Shown: positions 49,580 through 50,239, counted from the stretch's first letter. The stretch: DNA of 50,783 nt from Elainellaceae cyanobacterium (GCA_051117555.1 JBNPEG010000023.1:1-50783), one strand, 5' to 3'. The notes: generated by a model from the sequence alone, not told the origin. Made by a program: numbers and translations.

Positions 49580-49993
49580 TTAAGGATTCTTATTATCTTT
49601 AATATCAAGCCTTATAGCGTGGAATGGCCCCAATTTTGCCGCAAGTGAAACGTTTTTATCTCTAAGTACCGCTGTGAAACAGACAAGGAAACCTAATATA
49701 AGAACCATGCCGAATACAGTACTCTGCCCGGTTAACGGCGGCGAGGTTTGGTCTTCTACAGAAATTAATGGTGTTGCGACATACTGTTCCTCCTCAACTG
49801 CTATCGTCTCAAGGGAAGGCTTATTATCAGCTACTCTCACACAGCTTCCCTCAGCAATCTTAGAGGAGTCACACCAAATTAATAGAGGCGGTGTAATGCT
49901 TGAAACTTGACTGAGGGAAACTCCGTTCTTGAGTAGCTGACTGTTAGCTGAATAGACCTCATACGACGAGGATGACGAATTACTTTGTAACAT
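49580..49993 (-). CDS. 137-aa hypothetical single-TM protein; predicted target of the adjacent mini-CRISPR RNA (candidate toxin)
   Basis: Strong RBS AAGGAG 6 nt before the ATG; hydrophobic helix VFGMVLILGFLVCFTAVL; downstream hairpin. Confidence 0.72.
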   Translation of the reverse strand: MLQSNSSSSSYEVYSANSQLLKNGVSLSQVSSITPPLLIWCDSSKIAEGSCVRVADNKPSLETIAVEEEQYVATPLISVEDQTSPPLTGQSTVFGMVLILGFLVCFTAVLRDKNVSLAAKLGPFHAIRLDIKDNKNP

Positions 49994-50085
49994 TTGTTAC
50001 TCCTTAATTATTTTCATCGTTCCGATTTGGTTTGGTAGACGCCATTTGAATTTTAGCCTCCAACTATCTGATTTGGCACTATGTG

Positions 50086-50094
50086 TGCTAAAAT
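50086..50094 (+). promoter_or_regulatory. Extended -10 promoter for the mini-CRISPR RNA
   Basis: TG-C-TAAAAT about 7 nt upstream of the first degenerate repeat. Confidence 0.55.
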
Positions 50095-50100
50095 TCGTGC

Positions 50101-50239
50101 AACATCTTCGCAAGGAGACGGAGGCAAACGCTTCTTAAGTGGGTTTACTGTTAGATGAATAGACAGCAACCTACTTCTTCCCCGCAAGGGGATACTTTGT
50201 GTAAAGAGCCATTCAACATCATTGGCTGAATGGCTCTTT
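50101..50239 (+). ncRNA. Degenerate single-spacer mini-CRISPR (crRNA-like regulatory RNA)
   Basis: Pseudo-repeat 1 CTTCGCAAGGAGACGGAGGC (50106-50125), ~39-nt spacer (50126-50164), pseudo-repeat 2 ...TTCCCCGCAAGGGGATAC (to ~50195). Both keep the GCAA hairpin of the main array repeat. Confidence 0.75.
50203..50239. terminator. Intrinsic terminator, possibly bidirectional
   Basis: Perfect 13-bp stem AAAGAGCCATTCA / TGAATGGCTCTTT with an 11-nt loop. Confidence 0.75.

Follow-up and report, generated by a model that had tools for sequence, protein, structure and literature searches.

A one-spacer CRISPR-derived unit beside a cyanobacterial type III-D operon carries a guide antisense to the neighbouring gene

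Next to a type III-D cas operon, a cyanobacterium of the family Elainellaceae carries a short element built like a CRISPR array with a single spacer, and we show here that this spacer matches the gene beside it in antisense orientation to the messenger RNA (mRNA). The window is one whole contig of 50,783 nucleotides (nt) (GCA_051117555.1, JBNPEG010000023.1:1-50783; contig C106, 50.8 kb), part of a 6.06-Mb cyanobacterial draft genome. The operon (39399..49405, minus strand) encodes Cas10, Csx10, Csm2, Csx19, Csx21, several Cas7/Csx7 paralogues and a CARF-HEPN protein, which makes the III-D effector gene set complete; cas10 itself (47099-49405, minus) encodes 768 amino acids (aa) with a GGDD motif in the translation. 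Upstream of cas10 and on the same strand lies a gene for a 137-aa protein (49580..49993, minus). Beyond it, about 700 nt upstream of cas10 and divergent to the III-D operon, follows the one-spacer element (50086-50239, plus), which we call the mini-array. An ordinary CRISPR array of 17 repeats is found at 36528-37788 (plus). Its repeat, GTTTCATCTCACTTACCCCGCAAGGGGACGGAAAC, also builds a 19-repeat array on another contig (C22), and the spacers of these two arrays measure 36-49 nt.

The hairpins and the tag of the mini-array derive from this repeat, with which they share a GCAA loop. The initial annotation had described an extended -10, two degenerate repeats, a spacer and a terminator on the plus strand upstream of cas10, and all of these elements are present. 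The unit opens with a promoter-like extended -10 of the form TG-n-TAAAAT (TGCTAAAAT, 50086-50094, plus), which sits in place of the 5' 15 nt of a normal repeat; a two-hexamer promoter scan left it unflagged because it has no -35. The first degenerate repeat (psiR1) follows with the hairpin CTTC-GCAA-GGAG (50106-50117, plus). As had been proposed, its stem is upheld by compensatory change: one double, compensatory change and one G-U-compatible change keep it, and it is present in the centroid fold. The stem is followed by an 8-nt tag, ACGGAGGC (50118-50125, plus), identical to the canonical tag ACGGAAAC in six of eight positions. The second degenerate repeat (psiR2) has kept the hairpin core only (CCCCGCAAGGGGA, 50180-50192, plus), which agrees with the array repeat in all 13 nt of its core. 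The two stems start 74 nt apart, a period that implies a spacer of 39 nt, inside the range of the ordinary arrays, and this spacer-like guide occupies 50126-50164 (plus). The unit closes with an intrinsic-terminator-like hairpin (arms 50203-50215 and 50227-50239, plus), whose 13-bp stem is 100% complementary and is followed by GTTATT. The predicted fold of the mini-array RNA is strongly structured (z = -5.9) and leaves the terminator hairpin intact; Rfam returned CRISPR-DR matches below threshold only.

A further repeat remnant at 50453-50549 is not the source of the mini-array; its loop is GAAA and not GCAA. This second one-spacer remnant belongs to another repeat type and consists of an intact repeat, a 36-nt spacer without any genome match longer than 14 nt, and a repeat that ends after the loop. 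A related repeat builds a 5-repeat array on contig C163.

Smith-Waterman alignment joins 50117-50164 to 49909-49957 with 39 identities in 50 columns (score 42), and by a hand count on this alignment the guide alone has 32 identities in 41 columns against 49918-49957. The match that had first been noted, 27 identities and one bulge between 50132-50164 and 49926-49957, was reproduced in this way, and the 17/18 match of 50147-50164 to 49940-49957 was recovered; the similarity reaches further 5' than first noted and takes in the psiR1 tag. Among 5948 random 654-nt segments of the same genome the maximum score was 27, and none (0/5948) came near the value observed. The stretch 49909-49957 is the best match of the spacer in the whole 6.06-Mb genome, the spacer itself excepted, and the sole significant match of the guide lies inside the open reading frame (ORF) of the 137-aa protein. 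The predicted duplex has an energy of -41.4 kcal/mol, equalled by one of 1487 random segments. The match between guide and target is not a product of chance. The 38 ordinary spacers of three arrays, by comparison, have no genome match beyond short words of 14-19 nt.

The borders of the match fall on the last base of the psiR1 stem and on the last base of the spacer, and beyond them no similarity was found (1712/2000 and 393/2000 shuffles as good). Thus, the match covers the tag plus guide that would remain after a cut by Cas6 at the base of the hairpin. Guide and target are direct repeats on the same strand, 208 nt apart, as would be expected if a 49-nt fragment of the gene had simply been duplicated locally and had landed by chance between repeat-like hairpins, with neither an RNA function nor a CRISPR history. 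A plain duplication offers no reason for borders that coincide with stem base and spacer end, for a copy length that fits the array spacers, or for a frame of repeat-derived hairpins set one array period apart, and we consider it extremely improbable. The converse idea, that the target copy is itself a second mini-array, was rejected, as this copy has neither decayed hairpins nor a promoter and encodes a conserved protein motif.

The initial annotation took the guide to be antisense to an mRNA, that of the minus-strand gene next to it, which presupposes that this gene is real. A word-indexed protein search returned nothing but a shorter version of this ORF, called at 86 aa. An exhaustive HMMER search found two relatives, P0002 (122 aa, E = 1.5e-12) and P0003, the former aligned from residue 1, and a profile search added five more (P0005-P0009). 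The eight proteins have in common a motif at the N-terminus (consensus YLTNSQLLENSVSLS), an AEGxC motif, the sequence LETIAVEE and a hydrophobic helix at the C-terminus; that relatives align from the first residue argues that the ORF is a real gene. The product belongs to a rare cyanobacterial family and appears to be tail-anchored, with one C-terminal membrane helix. It has no family match in Pfam, NCBIfam or PADLOC, and its structure model, of low confidence (mean predicted local distance difference test, pLDDT, of 48), contains one helix at 89-112, with low confidence elsewhere; no usable look-alike came from the Atlas search. In the mRNA, the target site (49909..49957, minus) comprises a flank (49910-49917) and the protospacer (49918-49957), covers codons 13-29 and encodes the motif VYSANSQLLKNGVSLSQ. 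As this is the conserved N-terminal motif, the site is under protein-coding constraint, and the guide must therefore have arisen as a copy of the gene sequence or have evolved to resemble it.

Several signals surround the 137-aa gene. A Shine-Dalgarno sequence AAGGAG (50000-50005, minus) lies 6 nt before the ATG, and a promoter-like site (50050..50079, minus) stands back to back with the -10 of the mini-array; together with the conservation of the gene, these two signals suggest that it is transcribed. The only other promoter-like site on the minus strand upstream of cas10 (49300-50783) is at the contig end (50783-50755). The site at 50079-50050 is thus the sole one nearby, and read-through into cas10 appears possible. 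Between the 137-aa gene and cas10, nine nt past the stop codon of the former, a 12-bp hairpin followed by the T-run TTTTGTGGTG (49529..49570, minus) may act as terminator or attenuator. Within the gene, 49827..49857 (minus), the codons of the AEGSCVRVA motif, is an internal complement of the target site and is predicted to fold onto it in the mRNA. This inverted repeat with 49907-49940 scores 25, reached by 0/3000 shuffles, and joins the codons of two conserved motifs; the hairpin may gate access to the target or may be a processing signal of its own.

Conservation within the mini-array is uneven. The psiR2 core is identical to the array repeat in 13/13 positions and its flanks in 2/22 (Fisher p = 7e-8), while the psiR1 core plus tag has 15/20 identities, with changes that preserve the stem. 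The repeat parts outside hairpin and tag are at random level, with 3/15 for the 5' part of psiR1, 2/15 for the 5' part and 0/7 for the 3' part of psiR2; taken together, the hairpin cores plus the tag keep 28/33 positions and the other parts 5/37. A decayed array would be expected to lose identity uniformly and to have no features of its own, but here the loss is confined to certain parts, and a promoter-like element and a terminator are present. That cores, tag and guide were kept while the other parts became random argues against uniform neutral decay; with flanks that have diverged to saturation, a guide under no selection would be expected to have diverged as well.

Compared with the target-adjacent flank ACTGAGGG (49910-49917), the tag ACGGAGGC matches in 6/8 positions (P = 0.004), including -2 to -5, whereas the canonical tag matches in 4/8 only. 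Both substitutions by which the tag departs from the canonical form, at -2 and -3, create pairing with the flank. For the type III-A system of Staphylococcus epidermidis, one preprint describes that Csm3 still cuts a target with a flank that pairs with the tag, while Cas10 is not activated, and that mismatches stop cutting only in their own segment (bioRxiv 10.1101/369744). By inference, the same anti-tag logic would here allow a host mRNA to be knocked down while no cyclic-oligoadenylate signal reaches the CARF-HEPN ribonuclease (RNase).

These observations suggest a reading to which we assign about an even probability, in which a CRISPR RNA (crRNA)-like RNA from the mini-array directs the III-D complex to the neighbouring 137-aa mRNA. 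We infer transcription, processing and loading of such an RNA, cleavage of its target without activation of Cas10, and a biological pay-off, along the following lines. The mini-array would be a minimal CRISPR-derived small-RNA gene, transcribed from just past the extended -10, at about position 50101, to the 13-bp terminator. Cleavage of both retained hairpins at their base, by a Cas6-type enzyme whose gene lies elsewhere in the genome, would free a crRNA-like RNA with the 8-nt tag and the 39-nt guide. This RNA would load into the III-D complex and pair with codons 13-29 of the divergent membrane-protein mRNA, which the Cas7 subunits would then cut. As six of eight tag bases pair with the 3' flank of the target and the middle of the guide holds mismatches and a bulge, the complex should read the RNA as self, and RNA cleavage would proceed without the Cas10 cyclase signal to the CARF-HEPN RNase. 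The outcome would be a Cas-dependent silencing of the neighbouring gene, and the cas10 operon might be dampened as well if it is read through from the same promoter. Either the silencing of a harmful cargo or the dampening of the cas operon may lie behind such an arrangement. Altogether, the functional reading is plausible and mechanistically coherent, and it rests on one locus.

The enzyme for the processing step would have to come from outside the window. The single Cas6-family gene found in the genome encodes a 401-aa Cas6-HTH fusion on contig C21, and as the only such gene found it may serve both type III systems. The second system lies on the same contig (locus L036, 5111-12753) and comprises a III-B-type cas10, a CARF-WYL regulator and the Cas6-HTH gene.

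A number of points weigh against silencing by the III-D complex. No cas6 is encoded in the 50.8-kb window, the tag is canonical in six of eight positions only, and the anti-tag rule, in the available text of the preprint cited above (bioRxiv 10.1101/369744), rests on type III-A and not on III-D. The predicted fold of the mRNA buries the target in the long hairpin with 49827-49857. The guide differs from the target in 9/41 columns (22%), with indels near its 5' end and in the middle, and the differences do not lie on wobble positions, so that they give no sign of a guide tracking its target. With the repeat remnant at 50453-50549, only 260 nt further on, the area also looks like a site of array decay. 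A systematic survey of repeat-like elements reports mini-arrays near 10-14% of type III loci, which lack targets and positional conservation and were judged to be degraded repeats (bioRxiv 10.1101/2023.03.03.530964). Finally, the mini-array is known from the sequence of one locus in one genome alone. No counterpart was found upstream of cas10 in 17 Cas10-related loci (13 from genomes and 4 from metagenomes, 53-74% identity), scanned by regex and blastn-short, and the region together with this cas10 is absent from both same-genus genomes and from the one other genome of the family.

Most of the 17 loci have other cas genes upstream of cas10, four have ordinary arrays (L013, L017, L019 and L021), and the other matches lie inside coding sequence. 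The short array of L019 was considered as a counterpart and rejected because it has a normal leader resembling that of the window array. A blastn search with 49406-50450 over 60 relatives gave only a 28-nt chance match to the terminator in unrelated context (G047). When relatives of the 137-aa gene were sought in a class sample of 401 genomes, only the genome studied here (G000) and two weak matches were returned. Usable DNA for the relatives of the protein was found neither in the own order (4 genomes), in viral contigs and in five genomes with Cas10 loci, nor in 401 genomes of another order and in plasmids, nor in a 374-genome draw from the class (by its family and genus counts apparently much the same sample as the 401), and tblastn against the collected loci likewise gave nothing usable. 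Within the genome, stand-alone repeat-like sites on contigs C17 and C107 lie inside coding sequence and were taken as chance, as were about a dozen further single regex matches to the repeat on other contigs. A search for sequencing runs with 49000-50783 returned none, which speaks neither for nor against expression.

Part of this evidence fits a different history, in which an array upstream of cas10 took up a spacer from the neighbouring gene, the array then shrank and mutated under selection against self-targeting, and a defused, non-functional fossil of autoimmunity, transcribed or not, was left behind. The four ordinary arrays mentioned above occupy the same position and orientation upstream of cas10, and the second decayed repeat pair, the divergence of guide and target with its indels, the absence of a conserved counterpart in relatives and in the 17 loci, and the judgement of the survey on type III mini-arrays are all what such a fossil would lead one to expect. 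Neutral decay should, however, strike all positions alike, while here cores, tag and guide are kept at 78-100% and the other repeat parts are random. In spacer acquisition the flank of the protospacer is not copied, yet tag and flank agree as described, and both changes of the tag raise the pairing. Where psiR1 should have its 5' part there is a promoter-like -10, psiR2 is followed by a terminator with a perfect 13-bp stem, and the region upstream of the mini-array shows no similarity to the array leader (1866/2000 shuffles as good). We regard a defused relic, the main rival reading, as rather unlikely.

The RNA might also act without any Cas protein, as an antisense small RNA in the layout of a type I toxin-antitoxin pair, in which host RNases would decay the mRNA or the pairing would block it, and the hairpins would be merely inherited modules. 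Divergent pairs of small RNA and toxin with short trans complementarity are known, such as tisB/istR-1 and zorO/orzO. The back-to-back promoters at our locus are of this kind, the 17/18 core of the match is located in an apical hairpin of the predicted, very stable RNA with a terminator after it, and the target protein has a single hydrophobic helix. Type I toxins are, however, typically shorter than about 60 aa and mostly hydrophobic, and their antisense RNAs act without Cas proteins, whereas the 137-aa protein is longer and mostly non-hydrophobic. Moreover, it is difficult to account for a 13-nt repeat core kept exactly and a psiR1 with its stem preserved, one array period apart and beside a cas10 operon, if neither Cas6 nor the effector is involved, and the complementarity begins at the predicted Cas6 cut. 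A Cas-independent antisense RNA is therefore very unlikely in our estimate.

For the III-D-directed reading, the closest comparison is with CreA of the CreTA and CrePA modules (types I-B, I-F and V-A). Like CreA, the mini-array has one spacer between two degenerate repeats, its own promoter and terminator features and a place at a cas operon; the guide is partly complementary to an adjacent gene that is not a cas gene, and the repeat parts relevant for processing are kept. The differences concern the way of action. The effector here would be a type III-D complex, which recognises RNA, and not a DNA-binding Cascade; the target is the coding region of an mRNA (codons 13-29) and not promoter DNA next to a protospacer adjacent motif (PAM); RNA cleavage is proposed in place of a transcriptional roadblock; and immune activation would be avoided by pairing of tag and flank, where in CreTA and CrePA a truncated complementarity fails to recruit Cas3. 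The initial annotation had named the locus a candidate CreTA-like module. In partial support of this, the unit derives from CRISPR, holds one spacer and has promoter-like and terminator features; it lies upstream of a III-D operon with a complete gene set and is divergent to it; its guide is antisense to a real gene; and its conservation is uneven in a manner that function predicts. Strict membership in CreTA had to be given up, since the target is coding RNA and not a promoter with a PAM, and the effector is of type III. The CreA and CreR families are defined by a guide against promoter DNA with a PAM, read by a DNA-binding effector, a feature that this locus lacks, and we do not count the mini-array among them.

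Similar limits apply to other relatives. The CreR autorepressor mini-arrays (types I and V-A) also lie beside effector genes, and autoregulation is conceivable here if one promoter-like site (50050-50079) serves both the 137-aa gene and cas10; the guide, in contrast to CreR, matches no cas promoter, and a terminator-like hairpin stands between target gene and cas10. Ordinary type III crRNAs share with the predicted RNA an 8-nt tag from the 3' end of the repeat, a guide of the length found in arrays and an RNA target. They differ in that the self signal is proposed here on a chromosomal mRNA and not on antisense array transcripts, and in that our tag is only partly canonical and the guide imperfect. 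Self-targeting spacers with degenerate repeats likewise match the host chromosome and have mutated flanking repeats, but the mutations at our locus are non-random, with hairpins and tag kept, the rest replaced and the tag moved towards pairing with the flank.

Regulatory crRNA-like RNAs are established for the DNA-binding effectors of types I and V-A, and also for type II. A 2025 review, in its available text, places CreR in types I and V-A and names type III only as a toxin-antitoxin class (PMC12737573), and the CreR preprint, whose abstract names I-B, I-E and V-A, leaves type III unmentioned (0 occurrences). We found no description of a type III regulatory crRNA-like RNA in the literature covered, which holds few subscription papers. 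Regulatory CRISPR-like RNAs are known from DNA-binding systems, and the mini-array may thus be the first relative of them that acts at the RNA level. It is a concrete and testable candidate, with a defined RNA and a defined target 208 nt away, and suggests a way in which a host mRNA could be silenced by a type III system that does not raise its own cyclic-oligoadenylate alarm. If the III-D complex does silence the 137-aa gene, CRISPR-derived gene regulation would be extended to RNA targeting, and tag pairing combined with an imperfect guide would be a natural design rule by which a type III knock-down avoids collateral activity. A so far uncharacterised cyanobacterial family of membrane proteins would in addition gain a first functional handle.

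A more specific version, which we hold to be doubtful and decidedly unlikely, would make the locus a type III counterpart of CreTA and CrePA at the RNA level. In this case a domesticated one-spacer CRISPR would let the III-D complex cut a linked mRNA while Cas10 and the CARF-HEPN protein stay silent owing to the pairing of tag and flank and to the central mismatches, and loss of III-D would harm or arrest the cell. Loss or inhibition of III-D, for example by an anti-CRISPR, would then free the membrane protein, and the module would guard the cas genes or give a back-up by abortive infection. It would be the first case in nature of the type III self signal serving to control a gene.

The remainder of the contig holds some further features. 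The 1.5 kb that separate the CRISPR array from the CARF-HEPN gene are filled by a tandem repeat (37871-39386), in which a 29-nt unit containing the HIP1 octamer GCGATCGC recurs in about 52 head-to-tail copies (79% matches). On its other side, the array leader adjoins a cluster of genes (28268-35933) for CHAT-TPR, DUF928, CHAT-CHASE2, DUF1822 and sigma-70-region-4-like proteins. The leader itself (36350-36400) has the motif CCTTGAAAACCGCATA in common with the leader of the 3-repeat array of L019, which lies upstream of cas10 on a Chamaesiphon contig (2400-2800, minus), and this shared motif suggests a conserved leader element for this repeat family.

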